This document shows, piece by piece, positions 1-12,481 of a stretch of DNA of 12,514 nt (positions within the stretch are counted from its first letter, which is position 1; every line of letters starts with the position of its first letter). The position numbers and the translations under genes were made by a program. Source of the DNA: Thermoplasmata archaeon. GTDB lineage: Archaea > Thermoplasmatota > Thermoplasmata > GCA-020350865. The stretch is from contig CP070751.1 in NCBI GenBank assembly GCA_020348445.1, positions 1,314,055 through 1,326,568 on the forward strand, written 5' to 3'. The notes under the pieces were generated by a model, which worked only from the letters and a program-made list of their open reading frames with translations, was not told the origin of the DNA and did no database searches.

Positions 1-718
1 GACAGTAAGAACCATGAAGCGCAGATTTAAAACCAAGATCCCCATCTCGACACTCAACAACTGGATCAAAAACTATGGAGACGAGCTCCCCGCAACAAAG
101 CTCAGAAAGAAGTACACCCTCGACCCCAACCAGACAATCAAAACAAGACGCCTCTTCCACCCCCAACCCTACCTATTCAAGGTCCACACCCTAAAGCTCA
201 ACATCAAAGGCAAGCAGTTCCCTGAACTCAAACAGTACATCAACGGCATGCTTAACAATCCAATGGACCATCTTTTCCAGTCAAAGAAGGTCCTACGGGT
301 ATCAGAATTAGCAAACACCATAAATCTTCCCAAGCCAAATGTAAGATTAGTAAAAAACAGTCCTGCATCAAGAATGACAGATCTAGCACTGGAACTTGCC
401 AAGACAAAATCAGAACGTCACCAAAAGGTAGAAGAATTCTTCCTGGTAAATGACTCAGCCACTGTAGCGGTTGAGGTTCCGGTCTACCTAACTGAAAAAG
501 AATCAGGATTCAAAAAGCCCCTCACAGGTCACATCGACTTGATCCAGGTAAGGGGGAATCGTATACACATTTTGGACTACAAGCCAGAGAAGGGAGGAAA
601 TGTGGAAAACCAGCTCTCACTCTATGCAAAATGTCTGAAAAAGAGAACAGGATTATCAAATATCACATGCGCGTATTTTGACGAGAATATGTATTTTCAG
701 TTCACACCATATTATTGA
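1..718 (+). CDS. HTH + PD-(D/E)XK (RecB-like) nuclease protein, copy 1; 5' end lies outside the window
   Basis: The window begins in-frame at (AT)G ACA GTA AGA ACC ATG, equal to MTVRTM in copies 2 and 3, so the true start is upstream. HTH helix ISTLNNWIKNY; nuclease motifs E-VPV...GHIDL...DYK...QLSLYA. Confidence 0.9.
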   Translation, partial: TVRTMKRRFKTKIPISTLNNWIKNYGDELPATKLRKKYTLDPNQTIKTRRLFHPQPYLFKVHTLKLNIKGKQFPELKQYINGMLNNPMDHLFQSKKVLRVSELANTINLPKPNVRLVKNSPASRMTDLALELAKTKSERHQKVEEFFLVNDSATVAVEVPVYLTEKESGFKKPLTGHIDLIQVRGNRIHILDYKPEKGGNVENQLSLYAKCLKKRTGLSNITCAYFDENMYFQFTPYY

Positions 719-1082
719 TGCTTTATTATACCACGTAGTGTAATACCAAAAGGTATAACTATCGACATATTCTTCAGAGAATGGGTTATTAAGATCACCA
801 ACCGTTGAACACGTCACTAAGTTTGAAGCAAACTTTTAATGTTTATCGTTAATAACATATTATTTTTTTCAATTTATATTTCATTCTTATTAATAATATA
901 TTGGAAAACCAACCCGCCAAAATACATACTTTTTACCTAGACAAGAGCAATACGATTCTCGCCATAATTAAATGAATTTATAACGATTATCATTGGCATA
1001 TACCTCAAAAAACCCATAAAACTGGTAAAGAAAAGCTTAAATTCGCCAAGAACGATATGTGAACAGGCCTATTTATCAGATA

Positions 1083-1088
1083 GGAGGG
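1083..1088 (+). promoter_or_regulatory. Ribosome-binding site of the large PKD protein
   Basis: GGAGGG ending 7 nt before the ATG at 1096. Confidence 0.6.
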
Positions 1089-1095
1089 AATATTA

Positions 1096-4000
1096 ATGAA
1101 AAAAGAGACAGGGAAATTATCGAATTTTATTATTGTCGGTATGCTTGTTCTGGGTTCGTTCTTGGCAATGGCCGGACCTTTGGCCACGATAACGGCCAGC
1201 GCGGACGCAGGAATAGATCAGGTCGTGGATGTCAATACCATTGTTAATTTTGATGGGTCAGGCTCCTTTGGTGTGGGTGACCTGGAATATACATGGTATT
1301 TTAGGGACGGAACAATAACCACAGTTGATTCCCCCTACATAGCACACACATATTCAGAGGAAGGAATTTATGAAGTCGGGTTGCTTGTCAAGGATTCCAA
1401 CGGTTACTATGACCTTGATACTGTTCAAATAACTGTGAAGAATTATTACCCAGTAGGAGACCCAGGTTTTGACAAGGTTGCAAATGAAGATCAAATTGTA
1501 AATTTCGATGCTTCTGCCTCGTCCGATCTCAACAACGATATCGTATCCTATGAATGGGACTTTGGGGACGGTACAAGTATGACAGGAATAAGCGCTTCAA
1601 ATGTATACGAAGATGAAGGCACCTACTACGCAAAACTCAAGGTGACAGACAACGATGGGGCTTACGATGAGGATTTAATACTTGTGACAGTAAATAATGT
1701 TGCACCTTCTGCAGATGGGAGAGGCAACAACGAGGTTGACGATGATGTAACGATCTATGAGGACGAACAAGTAACCTTCGATGCTTTTTTGAGCTCTGAC
1801 ACACCCTCCGATGTGCCACTTTTGAAATACTCATGGGATTTTGGGGACGGTTGCATGGGCTCTGGGATCACATCGGCGCACACCTACACAAAACAAGGGA
1901 TTTATATGGCTATTCTGAAGGTAACGGACGACAATGAGGCTTTTGCCATGGACACTATCATGATCAATGTGATCAATTCTCAACCAGTCGCTGATGCAGG
2001 TTTGGATCAAGCAGTCAACGAAGGATCATCCTGTTTCTTCGATGGAAGCGGCTCGTCAGATACTCAGTCTGATGAACCTCTGCTTCTTTACTCCTGGGAT
2101 TTTGAGAAGGACGGAGCATACGATGATACCGGCTGGTATTCAAAATATTCCTGGTGGGACAACGGTCCTATAGAGAATGCATTGAAAACAGAAGATGATG
2201 ATGGTGCTGCGCAGCAAGATAACAAAAAGATCACGGTAAATAATGTGGCGCCTTTACCGGGAATATTCAATTACAGCACATCTGAGATAACGATCGTGAA
2301 TTTCAGTTTGAGGGTAACAGGTGAGAAATATCATGATGTGCAGGCCACGCTTTATGAGGATTCGACGCAGATAGGCTACATGCAGGTGATAAGGGCCCCA
2401 GGAAACCCAAATGAGCAAATGGAATTCATCTACAATGTCGAAATACACTCTGAGAATACCTATGAGGCGAAGATCATCTACACTCCAGAAGATGACCCGA
2501 TCAACGGTCAGATAAAAGGCGCATCGCCCTGCTGGTTCAGTCTTTATCTTGAGGATGGGAACAAGTTCACGTTCTTCCGATCTTTCAATGTGAACAAGCC
2601 GGATGAATGGGAATGGACCATAGATTTGAGCAGTATCAGAAAGATGACATTCGATGCTGAGATATACGATCCAGGAATGGACATTGTGACCTTCGGCTGG
2701 GATTTTGGAGATTCGTCACCAATGGTGACTCGCTCATATTCGCCAGGCGGCGATCATCCCACAAAGGTATGTGATATGGTGATGCATGTCTATGTTCTTC
2801 CCAAGGTTTACACCGTTGTATTGAATTCATTTGATGATGACGGTGCCCACAGCATCTATGCTCTTATTCTGACCAATACACCTGACTCAGTAACATTGGA
2901 TAATCTTGCACCGAGAGCCCAGGCGTTCAGCAATAGAAGTACAGCTTTAGAAGATGAAGAGTTCGAGTTCTTAGGCTCAGGAATAGATCTTTTGAATGAT
3001 GGATTGACATATAGTTGGGATTTTGATGATGGCCATTCAGAAACAGGTCAGGTTGTTAACCATTCATATGATGATGAGGGAATTTATCTTGTGACATTGA
3101 CTGTAACAGATTCATTGGGCGCGCATGGAAAGGACTATATCTTCGTGAAGGTAACAAATGCACATCCTATTGCAGAGGCAGGTCAAAACCAGGTTGTGAG
3201 CGAGGATGATGTTGTCAAGTTCTGGGCATTTGATTCCTGGGATACGATTTCTGATTTACCTTTGCTGAGCTATGCCTGGGACTTTGGGGATGGAAGCAAA
3301 GGCTGTGGTATCACGACGGATCACATATACACGAAGAAAGGCGTGTACACAGTAACCTTGACTGTTCAGGACAACAACGGAGCTATGAGCAAAGATATCG
3401 TAAACATTACAGTAAATAATCCTGCTCCATACGGCATTTTGATGGTTGCAGAGCCAAACGCAAAAGAGGACGAGCTCATACACTTCAATGGCAGCGCTCA
3501 AGACACCGCATCTGATGAACCGCTGCTTGCTTTCAACTGGGACTTTGGTGATGGCAAAATAAGCTACGGAACTAATGTGACGCATTCGTATTCTTTGCCA
3601 GGCTTATATGAAGTGGAATTGACGATCACAGACGATGATCTAAGCTCGGCAAACAAAAGCATCTCAGTAATGGTGGTTAATGTGTATCCTACGGGTTTTG
3701 CAGGCGCAACTCATGTTGAGCTGTACGGACCTGCAATGACAGTTGAATTTGAAGGCAGAGGCTTTGATACGTTTTCAGATGGATCTTCCCTTAACTATTC
3801 ATGGAATCTGGGAGGAGGTGATTTTGAATATTCCCAAACCATAAACATGGATTTCACAGCCACAGGCATTTATGACGTGAGTTTTGAGGTTAAAGACGTT
3901 CATCTTGGATCCAGCTCTACGATAATGATAAGAATCGATTTTGTTCTGGATTCTGATGGAGACATGATGACAGACGAGGATGAGCAAGCCAAAGGCACTG

Positions 4001-6498
4001 ATCCATTTCTATGGGATTCAGATGGCGACGACCTAATAGATTACTGGGAGGTGTATTATTATTCTACAGATCCACAGCTTCCCGATACAGATAACGATGG
4101 AATGGATGACTGGGAGGAAATTACGTTTATCGGGTTCACAGATATCGATGAGGATGGAATATTCAATCCCTTGGATTGGGACAGCGACGGGGATTGGATC
4201 AGGGATGGTATGGATACCCACCCGATGTTGTACAACGATGTTGATGGCACTCCCATAACCAGGGATGCGATCTCCGTAAGCAATACTATCGGGTATGGTG
4301 TGAGTGTTATTATGTATGGTGGGTTCTCCTACGATAAACCAACTCTTTCAGATATCACACCCCCCGTTAAAATAGCAGGAGAAACCGGTATCTATGTAAG
4401 GGTGCAAACCATGGCATCACCACCATTCAATGCTCAAATAAGAATTAGGTACGATAAAAATGCAATTCCAGGAGGCATTGCCGAGGAAAGACTCAGGCTT
4501 TTCGAGTGGTCCTCCGTAGAGAACAAGTGGCTTATCGTTTCAAACTCAGGTGTTGATTTAACACACGGCTTTGTTTGGGCAAAAGTCTCATATTTCACGG
4601 ATTACGGGATTGGCGATATCGGTCTGGTGGATTCTGACGGCGACGGATTAAATAATTGGCAGGAGATCAACACAAAATACACTGCCAAATTTGTTGGAGG
4701 AGGGCTTTCACCGACCTACTATTCCGGTCCACTGTACGTAAAAAACCGCAGGATACAAATCCAAATTCCACCTCAAAATATATATGGAAATAAAGGGGCA
4801 GTGGACCTGTTCGGCCTTGGGTTTAAGAAGGCTGACTTTGCGATTGACGACACATGGAGGTTAACCAACGGAGGATATTTAGAGTATGCCAAGGTCTATG
4901 TTTCTGAGGTCTATAACGCAATCTCTGCAATAATGACTTTTCAATTCACTGGGAAGGATAAATATATGCGAATTGACGTCAGGGGTTTCACGGACCCCTT
5001 TAATCCAGATACGGATTCCGATGGATTTTTGGACGGTGACGAACTCAGTAAATATAAAACAAATCCAATCGATACAGACACCGATGACGATCGTATAAGG
5101 GATGGGAGCGACTTGGACCCATTAGTAGATTTGCATATTATAGTTCATATCAAGGAAATATTGGAAATAGACCGTATAGACACCTGGCCTTTCGGAATTC
5201 GCAATAATGGCGATTTCTATGCAAAGGTTAATATCTATGGTAAGTGGCATAAAAGTCCAGAATATGGGGGTATGGCTCATGGATATCCTAACTACTTCGC
5301 TTCTCAGGATATACCGGATAATGTCCAAAATATATACATAAAGATCGAGCTATGGGATGCTGACTGGCCCAGTGCAGACGACCAGGCGGACATAAGCCGT
5401 TCGGGGAAAACGCTGGATTTGACTTATGATGTGAGGACGGGAATGTGGAGTGGCGAGGACTCGCTAAATGATAGAAACGGTCTTGGACATGCGAGCGGAA
5501 CTGAAGATGGCAGCAACAATAAGAATGAGGGCGATGTAGACATATGGTTCGATATATATCAAAATGATTATGATAACGATGGATTAGCATATTGGAAGGA
5601 AGTGCACAGTCTTGGTACAAATCCAAAGTCCACGAATGGTGACTCAGATGGGGATGATATGGCGGATTGGTACGAAGTCAGATACGGGTTTAACAGATTG
5701 GACCCCTCTGACGCTCAGAGCGATTCCGATGGAGACCATCTTACTAATCTAAAGGAGTATCAGGTTGGAACAGATCCGAGATTCTTTGAAGTGAATCTCG
5801 TGGTATCTTTAGATTGGGACGCCTCTGAAAGTTATATGGACAAATATGTAAGTGGAATGAGAAAGGCATCAAATTTTCTATATGATGTAACTGATGGATA
5901 TCTATATTTCAGATGTGTATTCATATATGATAATGAGGAAAATTGGGATGAAGCAGATATTAGGGTTTACAACGGGACAGCTTGGAAAAATGATCAACCT
6001 CATTGGCCCCAAGCCAAAACAGGGGGATTTGACAAAGGAGGTTTTATCACCATGCCTCAATACTTAAATCCCTACGGATTTAATATCCGTTATGGTCCCA
6101 CCCGGAAAGAGTACTATAAAGCAATAGTTCATGAAAGCGGGCATTATATTATGCACAGTTATGATGAGTACTGTCGTTGGAGTGATACAGAATGGGGTTG
6201 GGTAAAGATTCCCTCATCGAGAAGACCTCATACTTTCATGAACGACGCGTTATTGTATTCAGAGGCCAGCACCCCGACAACCTATAAAAAGACAAAATAT
6301 CATATAACCGCACAATGGGAAGAAGCTGGGATGTCTACCTGGGAATCGTTTTTCTACAATTATACTAATAGGATATGGTTCGATCTAGATAAAAATGGTG
6401 TCGATGATACAATGTTTCTGAATTCATATACCACCGTCTCGGGACCAACCATAACTGTTGATGGAGGCTTTACGATCGTAAAAACATACAATACATAG
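1096..6498 (+). CDS. Secreted/cell-surface 1800-aa protein: signal peptide, ~9 PKD domains, ~11 bacterial TSP3-like Ca-binding repeats, C2-like beta domain, C-terminal CLCA-like zinc metalloprotease domain
   Basis: Basic then hydrophobic N-terminus (MKKETGKLSNFIIVGMLVLGSFLAMAG). Repeated PKD signatures (YxWDFGDG...HxYxxxGxYxVxLxVxD). DxDxDG...E...TDP repeats. C-terminal HESGHYIMHSYDEY motif preceded by ASNFLYDVTDGYLYFRCVFI. Confidence 0.9.
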   Translation: MKKETGKLSNFIIVGMLVLGSFLAMAGPLATITASADAGIDQVVDVNTIVNFDGSGSFGVGDLEYTWYFRDGTITTVDSPYIAHTYSEEGIYEVGLLVKDSNGYYDLDTVQITVKNYYPVGDPGFDKVANEDQIVNFDASASSDLNNDIVSYEWDFGDGTSMTGISASNVYEDEGTYYAKLKVTDNDGAYDEDLILVTVNNVAPSADGRGNNEVDDDVTIYEDEQVTFDAFLSSDTPSDVPLLKYSWDFGDGCMGSGITSAHTYTKQGIYMAILKVTDDNEAFAMDTIMINVINSQPVADAGLDQAVNEGSSCFFDGSGSSDTQSDEPLLLYSWDFEKDGAYDDTGWYSKYSWWDNGPIENALKTEDDDGAAQQDNKKITVNNVAPLPGIFNYSTSEITIVNFSLRVTGEKYHDVQATLYEDSTQIGYMQVIRAPGNPNEQMEFIYNVEIHSENTYEAKIIYTPEDDPINGQIKGASPCWFSLYLEDGNKFTFFRSFNVNKPDEWEWTIDLSSIRKMTFDAEIYDPGMDIVTFGWDFGDSSPMVTRSYSPGGDHPTKVCDMVMHVYVLPKVYTVVLNSFDDDGAHSIYALILTNTPDSVTLDNLAPRAQAFSNRSTALEDEEFEFLGSGIDLLNDGLTYSWDFDDGHSETGQVVNHSYDDEGIYLVTLTVTDSLGAHGKDYIFVKVTNAHPIAEAGQNQVVSEDDVVKFWAFDSWDTISDLPLLSYAWDFGDGSKGCGITTDHIYTKKGVYTVTLTVQDNNGAMSKDIVNITVNNPAPYGILMVAEPNAKEDELIHFNGSAQDTASDEPLLAFNWDFGDGKISYGTNVTHSYSLPGLYEVELTITDDDLSSANKSISVMVVNVYPTGFAGATHVELYGPAMTVEFEGRGFDTFSDGSSLNYSWNLGGGDFEYSQTINMDFTATGIYDVSFEVKDVHLGSSSTIMIRIDFVLDSDGDMMTDEDEQAKGTDPFLWDSDGDDLIDYWEVYYYSTDPQLPDTDNDGMDDWEEITFIGFTDIDEDGIFNPLDWDSDGDWIRDGMDTHPMLYNDVDGTPITRDAISVSNTIGYGVSVIMYGGFSYDKPTLSDITPPVKIAGETGIYVRVQTMASPPFNAQIRIRYDKNAIPGGIAEERLRLFEWSSVENKWLIVSNSGVDLTHGFVWAKVSYFTDYGIGDIGLVDSDGDGLNNWQEINTKYTAKFVGGGLSPTYYSGPLYVKNRRIQIQIPPQNIYGNKGAVDLFGLGFKKADFAIDDTWRLTNGGYLEYAKVYVSEVYNAISAIMTFQFTGKDKYMRIDVRGFTDPFNPDTDSDGFLDGDELSKYKTNPIDTDTDDDRIRDGSDLDPLVDLHIIVHIKEILEIDRIDTWPFGIRNNGDFYAKVNIYGKWHKSPEYGGMAHGYPNYFASQDIPDNVQNIYIKIELWDADWPSADDQADISRSGKTLDLTYDVRTGMWSGEDSLNDRNGLGHASGTEDGSNNKNEGDVDIWFDIYQNDYDNDGLAYWKEVHSLGTNPKSTNGDSDGDDMADWYEVRYGFNRLDPSDAQSDSDGDHLTNLKEYQVGTDPRFFEVNLVVSLDWDASESYMDKYVSGMRKASNFLYDVTDGYLYFRCVFIYDNEENWDEADIRVYNGTAWKNDQPHWPQAKTGGFDKGGFITMPQYLNPYGFNIRYGPTRKEYYKAIVHESGHYIMHSYDEYCRWSDTEWGWVKIPSSRRPHTFMNDALLYSEASTPTTYKKTKYHITAQWEEAGMSTWESFFYNYTNRIWFDLDKNGVDDTMFLNSYTTVSGPTITVDGGFTIVKTYNT

Positions 6499-6586
6499 AT
6501 ACAAATCTAATTAGTGTAAAACAATTATAATTTTATATACATTTCGTTCCTATAAATTAAATAATAATACATAAACCAAGACTTTC

Positions 6587-6707
6587 ATTTCACAAAGGGC
6601 TCCGCCCTTTTAATCCCGCTAAAAATTAGTAAACAAAAATATTTTTATATCTCATTCACAAAAGGCTACGCCCTTTTAATCCCCAAAAAAATTTAGTAAC
6701 CAAGAAT
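6587..6707 (+). repeat. Two tandem ~55-65 bp repeats, each with a mini-hairpin followed by TAATCCC
   Basis: AAAGGGC-TCC-GCCCTTT-TAATCCC (6594-6617) and AAAAGGC-TAC-GCCCTTT-TAATCCCC (6660-6684). Both are preceded by TTCAC and followed by an A-run then TTAGTAA. Periodicity 66 bp. A degenerate third start (TTTTCACGAAGGC) lies at 6721. Confidence 0.85.
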
Positions 6708-6746
6708 AGCTTTTCATATGTTTTCACGAAGGCCTCGCAGAGCCGC

Positions 6747-6919
6747 AAAAAACCGCCCCCATCACCCGAGGATCGTAACTCCCCCCTCAAAAACCGCCAC
6801 ACATACCCCCTCTGCGCACCCAAAACCGACCCCATCTCCCAAATCCCGCAAAAACCCCAAGATTCCCACCACACATACCTCCTCTGCAAGGCCCAGAAAC
6901 CCCCCAAATCGCGGGATTA
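6747..6919 (+). repeat. C/A-rich conserved non-coding block, copy A (internal ~72-bp duplication)
   Basis: 6861-6919 is 58/59 identical to 10527-10585. ACACATACC(C/T)CCTCTG occurs at 6799 and 6871. Confidence 0.9.
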
Positions 6920-6968
6920 GAGGGACGCAGCCAGCGCATCAAAATCGCACCAAGGATCATACCCCCTC

Positions 6969-7127
6969 ATCTCACGCAAATCGTATACGAAATACGAGTG
7001 ATAGATACCCGATCCCATTTACGAAACTCGTGAGATGCACGCCAAATCCTTTACGAAACGCGTGAGATACTTCGTATACGAAAACCGTGCGATATCTCAC
7101 GAAGATTGTATACGAAATTCGTGCGAT
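6969..7127 (+). promoter_or_regulatory. Array of 17-bp sites (consensus TACGAAANNCGWGNGAT); putative operator/iteron/end-binding sites of copy 2
   Basis: Direct units at 6986, 7020, 7052, 7077, 7111; inverted units at 6969-6985 and 7094-7110; palindromic cores TCGTATACGA. The repeats are seen directly; the binding-site function is inferred. Confidence 0.75.
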
Positions 7128-7160
7128 AGATTGAAATATCCACAATCCATCCACCAGCTA

Positions 7161-8177
7161 ATGGCAAAGAAAAAAACCCTAACCACCATGTTCGAGGATT
7201 TCAAATTCGAACCACCAGCATGCCCGCACTGCGATTCGAAAGAGAAAGTAGTCAAAAGCGGCACAAGATCCCTTAAAGAGGATACAGCGTAGGTTTTTCT
7301 ATGCAGAACCTGCAACAAGCGCTTTTCCGATCGTAAACTTCCAAAGACTTCATACCCACCCAAAGTCATTCTTACCGCGCTAACATATTACAACCAAGGA
7401 CACACTCTCGATATGACGGTACGCACCATGCGTAGAAAATACAAGACTAAAATCCCGATAACAACCCTCAGCAGTTGGATTTCACGTCATCAAGAAGAAC
7501 TCCCATTCACCAAGCTCAGAAAGAAGTACACCCTCGACCCCAACCAAACAATCAAGACAAGGCGCCTCTTCCACCCACAGCCATACCTCTTCCGGGTCCA
7601 CACACTCAAACTCAACATTAAAGGCAAACAGTTCCCGGAACTCAAGCGATACATAAACGATATGTTGAACAATCCAATGGACCACCTTTTCCAATCCAAG
7701 AAGGTTCTGCGGGTATCAGAATTAGGAAACACAATCAACATCCCCAAACCCAATATCCGATCTGTAAAAGACAGCCCCGCATCCAGGATGACGGATCTAG
7801 CATTGGAACTTGCTAAGACAAATTCAGAGAGGCATCAGAAGGTGGAGGAGTTCTTCCTGGTAAACGACTCGGCAACTGTTGCGGTGGAGATCCCCGTTTT
7901 CCTCACCCATAAAGAAGCAAGATCCCACGGAATCTCCATTCCTAAGACCCTTACAGGCCATATAGACATTCTCCAGGCAAGAAGTAACAGAATCCATATC
8001 CTAGATTACAAACCAGATGCTCAAAGCGAGAAACTGGCAAGGGAGCAACTCACACTATATGCAATCGCATTAGGTAAGAGAACCGGGATCGTTCCTTCGA
8101 AAATTATATGTGCATATTTCGATGAGAATGGATATTACCAATTCAAACCAGGGCATGTTTCCAAGGTTCATGGTTAA
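7161..8177 (+). pseudogene. Zn-ribbon + HTH + PD-(D/E)XK nuclease protein, copy 2, interrupted by an in-frame TAG at 7290-7292 (338 codons if read through)
   Basis: ATG 7161 gives MAKKKTLTTMFEDF...CPHC...DTA*VFLCRTC...LTYYNQGHTLDMTVRTM, colinear without frameshift with intact copy 3 and in frame with ORF 7413-8177. GHID/DYK/QLTLY motifs are retained. Confidence 0.85.
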
Positions 8178-8251
8178 TACCATTGATGTATAAAATATAC
8201 TTAGATAATTACGACAAAATTAAGTAAAACAGATTATAGGATGGATTGGAC

Positions 8252-8791
8252 ATGTCAAAAGTGTACGAATTTAAAGCGGCTTTTAAACGTCGAAAAGGAC
8301 TTTGGCGCCGAATCCAGATCAAAGATGATCAAACTCTCAAGGATTTCGACAGCATCATGCGTAAAGCATTTAATCATGATAAGGATGACCATCTGAGCGA
8401 ATTTTTCCCTGGAAGAGCATGGAGGTCAAAGGGATTTGGCGAGATAGATCCCACTGGAAAAGGTAAGGGCTCTAAATTGCGAATTAAAACACTTGGATTG
8501 AGCGAGGGGGACAAACTGGAATATGTCTATGATTTTGGAGATGACATCCAGCATATTATTACCTTTGAGAAGATGGTAGAACCCAAGAAGGGAACATCAT
8601 ATCCCCGCATTATTGCCAAGAACAAGCCAAAATATAATTACTGCGAAGCATGTAATAAACAGGGTAAAAAAACGAAAGCCACATGGGTATGTATTGAATG
8701 TACAAATGAGAGGGAAAAAGCTTTGTTTCTTTGTGATGATTGTTTGATAAAGGAGCATGAGGAACATTATGCAGACGAGCTGACATACTAA
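8252..8791 (+). CDS. pRiA4b ORF3-like family protein (also known as IS1096 passenger TnpR-like) with a C-terminal Cys/His zinc-finger-like tail
   Basis: Family-typical motifs WRRIQI...TLxDF...AF...DHLxEF...L...GDKLEYVYDFGDDIQHII; tail CxxC...CxxC...CxxC...H. ATG 8252 is preferred over TTG 8246. Confidence 0.8.
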   Translation: MSKVYEFKAAFKRRKGLWRRIQIKDDQTLKDFDSIMRKAFNHDKDDHLSEFFPGRAWRSKGFGEIDPTGKGKGSKLRIKTLGLSEGDKLEYVYDFGDDIQHIITFEKMVEPKKGTSYPRIIAKNKPKYNYCEACNKQGKKTKATWVCIECTNEREKALFLCDDCLIKEHEEHYADELTY

Positions 8792-8890
8792 AAATTCTTT
8801 ATGTTGTTAGTTTTATGACTACGCTATAATTAGTTATGGAAGAAAACATATGAAGGTAAAACTTCATGAATCCTGATAAAATTCAGAGAC

Positions 8891-8933
8891 GAAAGTTTAA
8901 ATAGGATGTATAGCATTTGTATTACATGGTGAT
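8891..8933 (+). promoter_or_regulatory. Archaeal-type promoter (BRE/TATA) and RBS of the TA operon
   Basis: GAAAG-TTTAAATA (8891-8903) about 35-40 nt upstream of ATG 8938; GGTGAT at 8928-8933. Confidence 0.6.
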
Positions 8934-8937
8934 ATAT

Positions 8938-9180
8938 ATGGCGAGTTCGCAGCTGAATGTAAGGACTTCTGCTACCCTAATCGAGGAATTAGATGCTTTG
9001 GTTAACCGCGGTTTTTTTAGAAACAGAACCGAGGCTGTAAACGAGGGTATAAGGCTTTTGATCCGCAGGTATAAGGCTATGAAGATTGCAGAGAAGATCG
9101 ATAAAATAGCCATGGGAAAGAAAAGCAAAAAAAGTCTCACAGAGGCCTTATTGGAGTTACGGGACGAGGAAGACGCATGA
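8938..9180 (+). CDS. vapB: Ribbon-helix-helix (CopG/Arc/MetJ-type) antitoxin, VapB-like
   Basis: QLNVRT...LIEELDALVNRGFFRNRTEAVNEGIRLL is an RHH pattern. Start follows the GGTGAT RBS. ATGA overlap with the downstream PIN gene. Confidence 0.8.
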   Translation: MASSQLNVRTSATLIEELDALVNRGFFRNRTEAVNEGIRLLIRRYKAMKIAEKIDKIAMGKKSKKSLTEALLELRDEEDA

Positions 9181-9626
9181 GTGAATATATTGACACAAGC
9201 GTTGTAGTGAAATGGTTCAGGGAAGGTGAAGATCACCGAGACGAATCGCTAAAACTGCGTGAGCGTATAATAAACTTCGATTGCGAATTTATAATGTCGT
9301 TTTTTGGTGTAATGGAATTGGTAAGGGCTCTCGTGAAAAATAAATATCCGAAAGATAAAATCGAGGACGCTTTTCAGAGTATGATGGATTTGTACAAGAT
9401 TGATGCAATAAAAAGCGTAGGGATTGAGGAGGCTCTATATCGAGCCAAGGATATTTCTATAGAGCTAAATCTTTTTGCAGGTGATGCTCTTCATCTGGCA
9501 TCGGCGATACAATGTGGATGTAAAATATTCTGGTCAGAAGACAAACATCATTTGAAGGCTTCTACAATAAAATTCATGAAGCGATATAACATAGAGATAA
9601 GGTCACTCTCACAGATTAAAATATAG
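9177..9626 (+). CDS. vapC: PIN-domain ribonuclease toxin, VapC-like
   Basis: YIDTSVVVKW...MELVRAL...GDALHLASA...SEDKH acidic PIN motifs; 149 aa; translationally coupled to the RHH gene. Confidence 0.88.
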   Translation: MSEYIDTSVVVKWFREGEDHRDESLKLRERIINFDCEFIMSFFGVMELVRALVKNKYPKDKIEDAFQSMMDLYKIDAIKSVGIEEALYRAKDISIELNLFAGDALHLASAIQCGCKIFWSEDKHHLKASTIKFMKRYNIEIRSLSQIKI

Positions 9627-9671
9627 AGAACACTCATGAGAGCTTAATTAAATAGAATTCTTGGACTTTTA

Positions 9672-9890
9672 ATTTCACAAAAGGCTCTGCCCTTTTAATC
9701 CCCAAAATTTAGTAACTAAGAATTATTTAGATACGTTCTACCGAGGGGTCACACCCCTCTAACCCCATTTAAAATTACTACCAAACGTCCAGGGGGAGAA
9801 ATCCCCCTGTAATCCCCTTTTTTTTTATAGCCTCCCTTGTCGGCTGACCGAATAGGAAAATTTCCGAAGGGCTATTCCCCTTCTAATTCC
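9672..9890 (+). repeat. Cluster of four mini-hairpin+TAA(T/C)(C/T)CC motifs
   Basis: AAAAGGC-TCT-GCCCTTT-TAATCCCC (9679-9703), whose flanks match the 6587/6654 copies; GAGGGGT-CAC-ACCCCTC-TAACCCC (9743-9766); CAGGGGGA-GAAA-TCCCCCTG-TAATCCCC (9790-9817); GAAGGG-CTATTC-CCCTTC-TAATTCC (9866-9890). Confidence 0.85.
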
Positions 9891-9937
9891 GCAAAAGAAT
9901 ATAAACGGGGAATTACATTATCACTTGGGCGATAGCA

Positions 9938-10270
9938 ATGGAAGAACGCCATAAGGAATTTAGGAAATGCAGAAAGGTGATAAAGATCTGGTTGAAAAAA
10001 GGGAGAGCTGAGGCTCAGAAGATCCCGGGTGCTAAAAAGTATATCTGGAATCTTGAGGCCAATCACTATGTTACCTTTGACGGCTCCCAATTGTTTGTAG
10101 AGGAATTTACTGATGTTACAGTTCCTCTCATGGTACTATGCGGAACAGGATACGTTAAGCGCGAGGAAACCGAAATAGGATATATTTATATTCCTAACGG
10201 TGATTACAGAAAATTCTTTGCTGACATCCTACCAAGGGCTCTGCCCTCTAACCCCGAAAAAAAATTATAA
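9938..10270 (+). CDS. Hypothetical protein (110 aa), possibly a captured or truncated gene fragment
   Basis: Protein-like composition with no recognisable family and no clear RBS. The frame is open from 9905, and the last codons run through a hairpin motif (10234-10255). Confidence 0.5.
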   Translation: MEERHKEFRKCRKVIKIWLKKGRAEAQKIPGAKKYIWNLEANHYVTFDGSQLFVEEFTDVTVPLMVLCGTGYVKREETEIGYIYIPNGDYRKFFADILPRALPSNPEKKL

Positions 10271-10321
10271 ATTAATAATTACTATAGACGTTCTTACGAG
10301 GGGCTACTCCCCTCTAACCCC
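10234..10321 (+). repeat. Pair of mini-hairpin+TAACCCC motifs, a direct repeat of the pair at 9679-9766
   Basis: AGGGC-TCT-GCCCT-C-TAACCCC (10235-10255) and ACGTTCT..GAGGGG-CTACT-CCCCTC-TAACCCC (stem 10298-10314); 66-bp spacing versus 64 bp in the 9679-9766 pair. Confidence 0.8.
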
Positions 10322-10410
10322 AAAATGAAATTTTTCATTACCTTTCCGGTCTGAGGCTTAAGACGATCCTGTTGTCTTATCATAACCCGCCAGGCTCCCC
10401 ATTCCCGCAG

Positions 10411-10585
10411 CCAAAAAACCGCCCCCATCCTCCAAATCCGGCAAAAATCCCCAGATTCCCGTAACACATACCCCCTCTACTCGGCCAAAAACCGAATCCA
10501 CCTCCCGAATCCGGCAAAAAACCCCAGATTCCCACCACACATACCCCCTCTGCAAGGCCCAGAAACCCCCCAAATCGCGGGATTA
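10411..10585 (+). repeat. C/A-rich conserved non-coding block, copy B (two ~73-74 bp tandem units plus conserved tail)
   Basis: Units start CCAAAAA(A)CCG at 10411 and 10485; ACACATACCCCCTCT at 10464 and 10537; tail 10527-10585 is 58/59 identical to 6861-6919. Confidence 0.9.
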
Positions 10586-10634
10586 TAAGGGCTCACCCAG
10601 TGCACCAAAATCCATCTCCGAACCACAATCCACC

Positions 10635-10793
10635 AACCCCCGCAGATGGCATGCCAAATACGAGCGTTAAAAAGACAAAACCATGTGCCAAATACGGGAG
10701 GTGAGCCCTGAAATTGGTGCCAACTGCGAGCGTTAGATGGCATGCCAATTACGAGCGTTAACTCCCGCAGATGGCATGCCAATTACGAGCGTT
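10635..10793 (+). promoter_or_regulatory. Array of 17-bp sites (consensus TGCCAANTRCGRGCGTT); putative operator/iteron/end-binding sites of copy 3
   Basis: Direct units at 10652, 10686, 10718, 10743, 10777; inverted units at 10635-10651 and 10760-10776; palindromic cores TGGCATGCCA. Function is inferred. Confidence 0.75.
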
Positions 10794-10825
10794 GATATCA
10801 AATAAGTCCAGGACAATTCCCTGTT

Positions 10826-11794
10826 ATGTCCAAGAAGAAAACCCTAACAACAATGTTCGAGGATTTTCACGAGGAGCGCCCCTCATGCCCTAAATGCTCA
10901 TCATCTGAATACGTTATCAAGTCTGGCAGTCGAACAGTCCGAGAAGAAACAGTTCCTTTATACTTTTGTAAATCCTGCCAAAAGCGGTTTTCGGACCGTA
11001 AGCTCAGTCACACCTCTTATTCACCAAAGCTCATTCTTTCAGCGCTAACATACTATAATATGGGCCACACATTAGATATGACAGTAAGAACCATGCGCAG
11101 AAGATACAAAACAAAAATACCCATTACAACCCTTAGAAACTGGATCAAGCGTTATGGAGAAGAGCTTCCATTCACCAAACTAAGAAAAAAATACACCCTT
11201 GACCCCAACCAGACAATTAAAACAAGGCGCCTCTTCCACCTCCAACCCTACCTCTTCCGAGTTCACACCCTCAAACTCAACATCAAAGGCAAGCAGTTCC
11301 CAGAACTAAAGCAGTACATCAACAATATGCTGAGCAATCCAATGGACCACCTTTTCCAGTCTAAGAAGGTCCTAAGAGTGTCAGAACTTGCAAACACAAT
11401 CGCCCTCCCAAAACCAAATATCAGATCAGTAAAAGACAGCCCGGCCTGTCGGATGACGGACCTAGCATTGGAACTTGCTAAGACAAATTCAGAGAGACAT
11501 CAGAAGGTGGAGGAGTTCTTCCTGGTAAACGACTCGGCGATAGTAGCAGTAGAAGTTCCAGTCTACCTAACAGAAAAGGAATCAGAATACCACAAACCTC
11601 TCACAGGCCACATAGACCTCATCCAGGTCAGAAGCAACCGCGTACATATCATGGACTACAAGCCCGACACGAGCGGGAATGTTGTAAACCAACTTCTATT
11701 ATACGCAAAATGTCTTAAAAAGAGGACAAGACTGACAAATATCATATGTGGGTATTTTGACAAAAATGCTTATTTTCAATTTAAACCCCCCTGA
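10826..11794 (+). CDS. Zn-ribbon (IS1 InsA-like) + HTH + PD-(D/E)XK (RecB-like) nuclease protein, copy 3, intact
   Basis: CPKC-x-VIKSG-x-CKSC Zn ribbon; HTH ending TTLRNWIKRY; C-terminal E-VPV, GHIDL, DYK and QLLLY motifs; 322 aa. Confidence 0.9.
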   Translation: MSKKKTLTTMFEDFHEERPSCPKCSSSEYVIKSGSRTVREETVPLYFCKSCQKRFSDRKLSHTSYSPKLILSALTYYNMGHTLDMTVRTMRRRYKTKIPITTLRNWIKRYGEELPFTKLRKKYTLDPNQTIKTRRLFHLQPYLFRVHTLKLNIKGKQFPELKQYINNMLSNPMDHLFQSKKVLRVSELANTIALPKPNIRSVKDSPACRMTDLALELAKTNSERHQKVEEFFLVNDSAIVAVEVPVYLTEKESEYHKPLTGHIDLIQVRSNRVHIMDYKPDTSGNVVNQLLLYAKCLKKRTRLTNIICGYFDKNAYFQFKPP

Positions 11795-11863: not shown

Positions 11864-12082
11864 ATGAAAATCAAGACTATACTAGAGAATCACAAGGACA
11901 GGTGGCTAGCTATTAGAGTGAGCCGGTTCGGTGAGAATAACATCCCATTGGAAGGGGAACTGATAGCGGAGGACGAGGATCGGGAAAAGCTCTGGAAAAA
12001 GGTCCCCCAAAGCAAGAAGAAAGCGATTTATATCCTGTTTTCTGGGGATTATCTAGAAGAAGGATACGCCGCGGCGTTCTAA
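11864..12082 (+). CDS. Small DUF5678-like protein
   Basis: 72 aa with the pattern H/YxxRWxAI...ELIAEDEDREKLWKKV; directly upstream of a retropepsin-like protease, the typical context of this family. Assignment is from recognition, not a search. Confidence 0.6.
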   Translation: MKIKTILENHKDRWLAIRVSRFGENNIPLEGELIAEDEDREKLWKKVPQSKKKAIYILFSGDYLEEGYAAAF

Positions 12083-12094
12083 AGTGGAATTTTT

Positions 12095-12481
12095 ATGAGA
12101 TTCAATATTGATAGGAGTGAACCTTTAATTGTTTTACCTGTGGGATTAGTTGGCAAATCCGCCAAGTATATCGTGAACATGGCTTTAGATACGGGTGCGA
12201 CATTTGTTATGATCCCATGGGATGTGGCTGAGCGCCTGGGATATGACCCAGCAATAAGCGATGATAGGATATCCATAACCACAGCAAGTACAGTTGAGAA
12301 AGTTCCCCTTATTACCCTTGAAGAGATAGACGTTCTAGGACAGTCGTTAAAGAATGTTAAAGTGGCGGTTCATGATCTGCCTGCGAAAAGTAGGGTTGAC
12401 GGTCTTTTAGGTTTAAGTTTCCTGAATAACTTTAATCTTAATTTAATGTTCAAAAAGGGATACCTTGAACTGGAAGAATGA
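12095..12481 (+). CDS. Retropepsin-like (clan AA) single-domain aspartic protease
   Basis: Catalytic ALDTGA, flap ITTAS and C-terminal DGLLGLSFL motifs; 128 aa. Confidence 0.88.
   Translation: MRFNIDRSEPLIVLPVGLVGKSAKYIVNMALDTGATFVMIPWDVAERLGYDPAISDDRISITTASTVEKVPLITLEEIDVLGQSLKNVKVAVHDLPAKSRVDGLLGLSFLNNFNLNLMFKKGYLELEE

Follow-up and report, generated by a model that had tools for sequence, protein, structure and literature searches.

The stretch of DNA analyzed here (hereafter, the window) is one complete contig of 12,514 bp from a Thermoplasmata-type metagenome-assembled genome (MAG), the assembly of which consists of 354 contigs joined by 100-N spacers. It carries three paralogs, denoted A, B and C, of a protein of approximately 322 amino acids (aa) that combines a transposase-type DNA-binding head with a nuclease domain and whose nearest relatives are encoded in MAGs labelled Thermoplasmata or Methanomassiliicoccales. 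Directly behind each gene, on the same strand, lies a different set of cargo genes, and upstream of B and C, a C/A-rich block is followed by an array of ~34-nt units (Table 1). Copy C is intact, copy B is interrupted by a single in-frame TAG, and the contig end truncates copy A.

The incompleteness of copy A reflects the start of the contig, not biology; two further nuclease copies in the genome also meet contig ends on the leader side, which fits a repeated leader breaking the assembly. Copy B occupies a single frame and is not frameshifted, the TAG at 7290-7292 being its only interruption. A reading of this codon as pyrrolysine was considered and rejected, given that no PylS scored above the cut-off in the genome and that TAG ends 23% of the long open reading frames (ORFs); thus, the codon is a true nonsense codon. 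The C-terminal third of paralog B is similar to a divergent subfamily.

Table 1 Features of the window and their coordinates.
Feature	Coordinates	Strand	Remarks
Nuclease paralog A	2..718	+	residues ~85-322, 5'-truncated at contig end; recognition-helix dipeptide NN
Cargo behind A: 1800-aa PKD-repeat surface protein	1096..6498	+	261-nt repeats
Mini-hairpin pair	6589..6693	+	GGGC-N3-GCCC, then TTTTAATCCC; 3' end of the preceding cassette
Copy B leader block, C/A-rich	6720..6960	+	72-73-nt repeats; conserved boxes including ACATACCCCCTCTGC and CGCGGGATTA
Copy B palindrome array	6969..7131	+	cores TCGTATACGA at 6981 and 7072, TTGTATACGA at 7106; ~−180, −90 and −55 from the ATG
Nuclease paralog B	7161..8177	+	338 codons, single TAG at 7290-7292; dipeptide SS
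Cargo behind B	8246..9626	+	PRiA4_ORF3-like protein (8246-8791), then VapB/VapC pair (8917-9626)
Hairpin elements	9674..10331	+	at 9674, 9738, ~9790, 9862, 10228 and 10293, around a 110-aa ORF (9938-10270)
Copy C leader block, C/A-rich	10400..10600	+	
Copy C palindrome array	10635..10797	+	core TGGCATGCCA at 10647, 10738 and 10772; −179, −88 and −54 from the ATG
Nuclease paralog C	10826..11794	+	intact, 322 aa (P0001); dipeptide RN (R104, N105)
Cargo behind C	11864..12481	+	72-aa ORF and retropepsin-like aspartyl protease

Architecture of the protein

The protein is an IS1/IS6-type Zn-ribbon/helix-turn-helix (HTH) head joined to a complete Cas4/RecB-like PD-(D/E)XK nuclease domain. In copy C, the four cysteines of the Zn-ribbon (residues 21-51) form the motifs CPKC (21-24) and CKSC (48-51), the HTH consists of three helices (residues 67-113), and the nuclease motifs are E243-x-P245-V, G261-H-I-D264, D277-Y-K279 and Q289-x-x-x-Y293. 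Among 34 homologs with 30-85% identity, E243, H262, D264, D277, K279 and Q289 are invariant and Y293 is nearly so. Hence the motifs quoted in a preliminary description of this DNA, made from the sequence alone, all occur in the 322-aa ORF at 10826-11794 and are (nearly) invariant down to 30% identity; the InsA-like head and the RecB-type PD-(D/E)XK tail proposed there were both borne out, the former by the IS1 model and BLASTP matches and the latter, as Cas4/RecB type, by motifs and structural alignment.

The head matches positions 1-82 of the 199 positions of the NCBIfam IS1 model NF033558 (E = 8.5 × 10−5) and also matches NF050000 (E = 0.0035); the matches to IS1/IS1595 Zn-binding and IS1 transposase models score below the model cut-offs. 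When the head was compared by BLASTP to an IS6/IS1-like DDE transposase encoded in the same genome, the two showed 29% identity over 95 residues (E = 5 × 10−9). That transposase (562 aa; G000:C1:2900059-2901747, L007 691-2379) carries, in addition to a Zn-ribbon/HTH head of this same type, a SWIM-like region at its N-terminus. The nuclease paralogs have no DDE domain: the IS1 model covers the head alone, and both motifs and fold mark the C-terminus as PD-(D/E)XK.

The AlphaFold model of copy C (pLDDT 90.9) has a PD-(D/E)XK fold that includes the central part of the protein. Residues 178-322 align with the N-terminal nuclease of DinG (Z 8.9, rmsd (root-mean-square deviation) 3.9 Å, 116 aligned residues), MGME1 (Z 7.8, rmsd 3.9, 116 aligned), Cas4 (Z 7.5, rmsd 4.1, 113 aligned) and AddA (Z 6.6), and residues 61-127, the HTH, align with terminase and transposase HTHs (Z 5-6.7). 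With Cas4, lambda exonuclease and a putative exonuclease, the alignments begin at residues 116-135, so that the supposed central domain corresponds to the N-terminal half of this fold. The near-invariance of this stretch, emphasized in the preliminary description, holds at the protein level only, and the stretch is not a separate domain. In Foldseek searches against the PDB, the top rows were Cas4 and AddAB, with no match at or below 10−3; sequence and profile searches of the PDB yielded TFIIS/Rpb9-type Zn-ribbons only, implying that no structure of a relative has been solved, and the ESM Atlas contained only generic 'PD-(D/E)XK nuclease' clusters. With Pfam family PF12705 (gathering threshold 22 bits), copy C scored 20.7 bits and the copy B fragment 28.8 bits, and many relatives carry this family in precomputed tables. 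PF04754 (Rpn/YhgA, Transposase_31) is missing from the Pfam matches at E up to 0.1, a distant superfamily kinship being possible. TIGR00372 (Cas4) reached 19.3 bits compared to a cut-off of 65, and there are no Cas4-type Fe-S cysteines, C308 being the only cysteine beyond the Zn-ribbon that is conserved among the 34 homologs.

Prediction of a homodimer gave an ipSAE of 0.64, compared to 0.00 for the best of three controls, with at least 93% of the contacts in agreement between runs and a partner pLDDT of at least 82; among proteins of solved structure, the mark for this score is attained by 20 of 30 homo-pairs and by 1 of 23 single chains, counts that apply only approximately because our own alignment was used. 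The predicted interface is formed by a near-invariant hairpin (residues 129-150) and HTH helix 1, which would explain the conservation of the central stretch, and a dimer would fit palindromic sites.

Palindromic sites and the recognition helix

In the window and in relatives, 10-bp palindromes are located at approximately −180, −90 and −55 from the ATG, with the spacing kept and the core varying between copies. The class of the core agrees with the recognition-helix dipeptide that follows 'TL' (TLxxW; residues 104-105) in 16 of 17 genes: genes with RN or TN have the core GGCATGCC, genes with NN have GGTATACC, those with SS or NS have CGTATACG or TGTATACA, and those with ND or DD have CCGGATCCGG. 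When the helix columns are left out, the tree shows at least seven changes of site class. GTATAC-type palindromes are also found upstream of homologs with 45-50% identity and of some DPANN loci. The binding of the protein to its own leader, as proposed in the preliminary description, appears well supported by these comparisons, i.e. by the phased upstream palindromes and the co-variation of their core with the recognition helix; that part of the proposal has to accommodate the fact that the leader also heads toxin-antitoxin cassettes without a nuclease.

Two further observations concern the sites. Genes of the NN class have 2-5 GGTATA/TATACC hexamers, i.e. NN-class half-sites, within the first 50-70 nt past the stop codon, where ~0.1 are expected (719-770 in the window, 2467-2540 in L002, and 3' of the gene in L125), and the other classes lack their own half-sites in this stretch; through these downstream half-sites, the same protein may act on a cargo operator. 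In addition, some cores are hybrids, e.g. TGGTATGCCA, and one array mixes three core types (L127 at −54, L046 at −56, the 991887 region of G000, and G000 4637671-4637762). Together with the near-invariant predicted dimer interface, the hybrid cores raise the possibility of heterodimers between paralogs.

Leader modules and orphan arrays

Within the genome, BLAST matches the leader 19 times, and the alignable module measures ~350 nt. Its C/A-rich, G-poor block (~200 nt), with the boxes ACATACCCCCTCTGC, CGGGATTA and AGCCAGTGCAC, precedes palindrome arrays at 14 or more places in the genome; because of its composition, a structured RNA is unlikely on either strand. Twelve arrays in the genome are orphans, and their cores belong to the same three classes as the resident paralogs (NN for A and the copy at 4953549, SS for B and RN for C). 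These orphan arrays head genes for ParE, PIN, BrnT with a MazE-like protein, NT/HEPN, AAA_14 and aspartyl-protease-like proteins. The presence of the same arrays at other cassettes implies that the proteins could act in trans. No nuclease remnants were found behind the orphan arrays of this genome, whereas in the congener G001, a 3' remnant of the nuclease gene lies between such a leader and VapBC.

The leader module and the hairpin elements recur between same-orientation cassettes in the window and in contig 346. The mini-hairpins consist of a 4-5-bp GC stem with a 3-4-nt loop, followed by T(T/C)TAA(T/C)CCC, and are located at cassette 3' ends (6589, 6655, 9674, 9738, ~9790, 9862, 10228 and 10293 in the window). 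A loose version of this pattern has ~20 matches in the genome compared to 0-1 in a reversed-sequence control, and the elements may be terminators or cassette-end signals.

Cargo and cassette turnover

The cargo behind the nuclease gene is shuffled between congeners, and close homologs have at least seven types of cargo behind the gene. A VapBC cassette that is ~85% identical across three congeners adjoins different nuclease classes: in G003, it lies directly behind an RN-class nuclease, in the window, behind the PRiA4-like gene that itself follows copy B, and in G001, ahead of an ND-class nuclease. Conversely, the same cargo is found behind nucleases of different classes in two comparisons, winC with M124 and G003b with M126.

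Side observations at these junctions include the 110-aa ORF between duplicated hairpin pairs (window 9767-10330), which is missing at the matching place in G001, where the VapBC hairpins lead directly into the nuclease site array, i.e. a small cassette insertion or deletion. In a second sediment sample, one contig joins position 833 to 6585, with 10 other letters in between, and skips the PKD gene; this joint, with a side of 35 nt, is weak and may represent a population variant without the PKD cargo. The contig joints in other samples have sides of 23-96 nt inside repeats and are possibly repeat-derived, so they are hints only. The 72-aa ORF and retropepsin-like protease behind copy C (11864-12481) match the PADLOC candidate PDC-M08B (E = 10−9), and a metagenome contig has this pair behind a nuclease from a different class. 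The PRiA4_ORF3/SNAPC3-like protein (8246-8791), inserted between nuclease B and VapBC, has a C-terminal Cys-rich finger.

Across 79 loci, the neighbours are enriched for NTP_transf_2 (9), AbiEii (3), HepT, HEPN and PIN, and no partner is conserved. Toxin-antitoxin-rich neighbourhoods are found in distant lineages as well, and a Woesearchaeota-type member lies amid HicAB and HepT genes. Neither the window nor the 140 neighbours include cas genes, and among the families that two or more of these neighbours have in common, none is an intein family. No integrase-like ORF lies in the window or the flanking arrays examined.

Distribution of the family and selection

The family comprises 453 clusters at 50% identity (E at or below 10−30) from both archaea and bacteria, and 504 stretches were confirmed by tblastn in GTDB species representatives; the hosts include Thermoplasmata, DPANN, Methanoperedens, Candidate Phyla Radiation (CPR) bacteria, Omnitrophota and Chromatiaceae, among others. 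Existing annotations are hypothetical, transposase-like, exoDNase V beta or PD-(D/E)XK family, and in the literature searched, we found no description of this architecture or family. Within the class, the gene is present in 5 of the 28 genera sampled, including that of the window, and in all four other genomes of that genus; each of these congeners has multiple copies and fragments, often in same-strand arrays 2-4 kb apart. An Avd-like (23S_rRNA_IVP) partner is found at one of five CPR loci looked at and is absent from the window. In a DPANN/CPR-type branch (L145-L150, metagenome contigs, with members of 376 aa), the gene belongs to a tightly overlapping, conserved row of five genes that encode proteins of 81/97, 148, 376, 133 and ~440 aa, without Pfam matches.

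The copies evolve under strong constraint. In the central stretch of the window copies, the proportion of nonsynonymous differences (pN) is 0.03-0.05 and that of synonymous differences (pS) is 0.5-0.6; across paralog comparisons, pN is 0.03-0.25 vs. pS of 0.5-0.9, with synonymous sites saturated. The combination of saturated pS and low pN indicates old paralogs that selection on the protein has maintained. The highest identity between copies within a genome is 81% at the DNA level among 10 multi-copy genomes, with the caveat that identical repeats may be collapsed in MAG assemblies. The similarity between copies stops ~10 nt before the stop codon, and a repeat search of the window found no terminal inverted repeats pairing the leader with sequence past the stop codon. 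The family is not a classical insertion sequence (IS).

A proposed site-reading nuclease and its alternatives

We tentatively favor, at slightly less than an even chance, the reading that the protein is a selfish, homing-like or cassette-shuffling, dimeric site-reading nuclease and not a cut-and-paste transposase. In this scheme, the transposase-type Zn-ribbon/HTH head of the homodimer would read the 10-bp palindromes, and the Cas4/RecB-type PD-(D/E)XK domain would cut or resect DNA. The paralogs would be specificity classes, each with residues 104-105 matched to the core of the palindromes upstream of its own start codon. The protein would, most likely, autoregulate because the −55 site abuts an apparent TATA box. 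The nuclease would make or process DNA breaks at the palindrome arrays, and the cargo directly downstream would be gained, lost and exchanged as a result of repair in which repeated leaders and conserved nuclease genes pair with one another. The reading draws directly on the architecture, the intact active site, the site arrays with their class match, the shuffled cargo, and the old paralogs under purifying selection; binding, autoregulation, cleavage and a link between cleavage and turnover we infer. What is new here is that the palindrome core tracks two residues of the recognition helix, that the arrays head toxin-antitoxin cassettes without a nuclease, and that cargo is shuffled between congeners.

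Several points weigh against this reading. The nearest folds (Cas4, RecB/AddA, MGME1, EXO5 and lambda exonuclease) are those of end- or single-strand-dependent enzymes; a fold of this type suggests the processing of ends or single strands rather than clean double-strand cleavage and does not imply site-specific double-strand cleavage. Of the mobilisation or homing by cleavage that the preliminary description proposed, the same consideration speaks against a classical double-strand homing enzyme, and the lack of terminal repeats, the copy identity of at most 81% and the saturated pS under strong purifying selection speak against a transposon-like reading. Ordinary homologous recombination between leaders or conserved gene ends could shuffle cargo without the nuclease, and leader and head might simply be passed on, or recombine, as a unit. 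The independent contrasts of the covariation, which go in the same direction in 2 of 2 and 3-4 of 4 cases, are too few for significance (sign test, p = 0.125-0.5). No excision or insertion junction of the nuclease unit was seen, and the stop codon in one copy, along with the many fragments, indicates that the gene is dispensable.

A rather unlikely explanation, albeit one that merits serious weight, is that of a regulator-nuclease of defence and toxin-antitoxin islands, i.e. mainly a transcription factor for its own promoter and for site-bearing cassettes, whose nuclease domain would serve defence or abortive infection by acting on DNA that is damaged or invades the cell, the shuffling being due to unrelated background recombination. 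The location of the sites just upstream of the apparent promoters of the gene itself and of the ParE, PIN, BrnT, NT/HEPN and AAA_14 cassettes would be expected of such a protein, and so would the enrichment of MNT/HEPN, AbiEii, HepT and PIN near the 79 loci, the PADLOC candidate among the cargo, and the strong purifying selection on diverged co-resident paralogs, as in immunity gene families. However, the PADLOC matches to the nuclease itself are only weak and Cas4-like (E ~2 × 10−4), there is no conserved partner or sensor domain, and the coincidence of the cargo breakpoints with the nuclease 3' end and the leaders is left unexplained.

Alternatively, the direct ~34-nt repeats upstream of the gene, spaced at 34/57/91 nt, could be iteron-like and bound by an initiator or maintenance protein of integrated plasmid-like elements, which would nick or process DNA for replication, transfer or partition. 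The different specificities of co-resident copies would then be incompatibility-like, and there are suggestive neighbours, namely, parA 3' of the gene in Chromatiaceae (Thiocapsa and Ca. Thiosymbion) and an adjoining TraG/VirD4-like ATPase in Ca. Methanoperedens. This scenario appears improbable: among the 140 neighbours, ParA was adjacent in just two cases, unrelated toxin-antitoxin cassettes have the arrays in front of them as well, further replication genes are missing from the window, and we know of no replication initiator with this fold.

A true transposase of a new IS-like element, with PD-(D/E)XK in place of DDE and cut-and-paste movement of leader, gene and cargo, is quite improbable. 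In its favor, the head is common to IS1/IS6 transposases, several copies of the gene exist alongside fragments and one copy with a nonsense codon, contigs end where leaders interrupt the assembly, and the leader-only modules look like non-autonomous derivatives. However, such an element would be hard to reconcile with the lack of terminal inverted repeats or second-end sites, with copy similarity that ends at the stop codon, with the absence of any copy pair above 81% DNA identity in the 10 multi-copy genomes (again, MAGs can collapse identical repeats), with old, selected paralogs as judged from saturated synonymous sites and low pN, and with orphan arrays in this genome that have no nuclease remnants behind them. 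Finally, a housekeeping DNA-repair nuclease duplicated by chance would account for the RecB/AddB/Cas4-like fold but hardly for a gene that is patchy (5 of 28 genera of the class, its own included) and yet multi-copy where present, always located in variable regions, and equipped with a transposase-type head with copy-specific sites, so that we give this option almost no credence.

If, as favored here, the protein is a site-reading nuclease, the findings could extend to a previously unrecognised, integrase-free gene-cassette system, in which dimeric nucleases with a transposase-type head and a two-residue specificity code would make breaks at the phased palindromes of a portable leader, and these breaks would drive the capture, loss and exchange of the cargo directly downstream; we regard this extended version as unlikely. 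Were it correct, the system would work like integrons or homing elements with PD-(D/E)XK chemistry, the cargo being toxin-antitoxin, defence and giant surface-protein genes. Should the nuclease act at the coded sites, it would be a natural, compact (~320 aa) dimeric nuclease with specificity apparently set largely by two residues, which is of interest for protein-DNA recognition and enzyme engineering. Its action at these sites would also account for the assembly and reshuffling of variable islands rich in toxin-antitoxin and surface-protein genes in uncultured archaea and in ultra-small bacteria, whose classical mobile-element enzymes are few. Even a mere regulator-nuclease would provide a name and testable sites for a large family (the 453 clusters).

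Comparison with known systems

The four-Cys Zn-ribbon followed by an HTH is shared with, and homologous to, that of IS1 InsA/InsAB' and the IS1/IS6/IS1595-type transposases. InsA binds the end of its own element at a site that overlaps its promoter, which it represses, and this site resembles the arrays that overlap the promoter region here. Unlike IS1, the family has no DDE domain, frameshift, terminal inverted repeats or near-identical copies, and has a PD-(D/E)XK catalytic part instead. With the RecB, AddA-AddB, Cas4, MGME1 and EXO5 nucleases (PF12705), it has in common the fold and the motif set E...hhhD...DxK...QxxxY; it differs from them in the lack of a helicase partner or fusion, of Cas4/AddB-type Fe-S cysteines and of cas genes nearby, as well as in its DNA-binding head with predicted sequence specificity and its predicted dimerization via an added beta-hairpin.

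The protein of R2-type non-LTR (long terminal repeat) retrotransposons, in which a Zn-finger and Myb head directs an RLE PD-(D/E)XK endonuclease to a specific site, has a similar head-plus-nuclease plan, whereas the family described here is found in prokaryotic hosts, without a reverse transcriptase and with a Cas4/RecB-type rather than a restriction-like core. TnsA of Tn7 is a PD-(D/E)XK nuclease involved in DNA mobility that requires the DDE protein TnsB and cuts defined transposon ends; neither the TnsB requirement, nor the domain order, nor the defined ends are matched in the family. Integrons (IntI with attI/attC) are alike in their short, same-orientation cassettes, many of them toxin-antitoxin, and in a repeated boundary element. 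However, the window has no tyrosine recombinase, copies of the nuclease gene are interspersed within the array itself, a leader of ~350 nt that carries phased palindromes serves as the boundary 5' of the cassettes, and the cassettes appear to carry their own promoters. Genes for free-standing homing endonucleases, among them the ones that lie in 'fractured genes' (Dassa et al. 2009, PMC2677866), are also stand-alone nuclease genes with their own control elements, sporadic horizontal spread and variable intergenic positions. Their folds, in contrast, are Vsr-like, LAGLIDADG, GIY-YIG or HNH, which differ from the fold and architecture of this family, and neither an intron or intein nor a target allele without the gene was found here, the sites being located upstream of the gene itself and of other cassettes.

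Other features of the window

Rfam (E up to 1) and tRNA scans of the window gave no matches, and a scan for bacterial promoters and terminators performed no better than on shuffled sequence. Among the sequencing runs listed as containing the stretch, all matches are DNA contigs of sediment metagenomes and none is from RNA. At 1-500, 6500-8000 and 10000-11500, the GC skew is strongly negative (−0.2 to −0.44) and the AT skew positive; the skew extends from the leader to two-thirds of the way into each nuclease gene, and the coding strand is unusually G-poor. The 1800-aa PKD-repeat protein (1096-6498) contains an HExxH-like motif (HESGH) in its C-terminal region, which hints at a metalloprotease-like domain.

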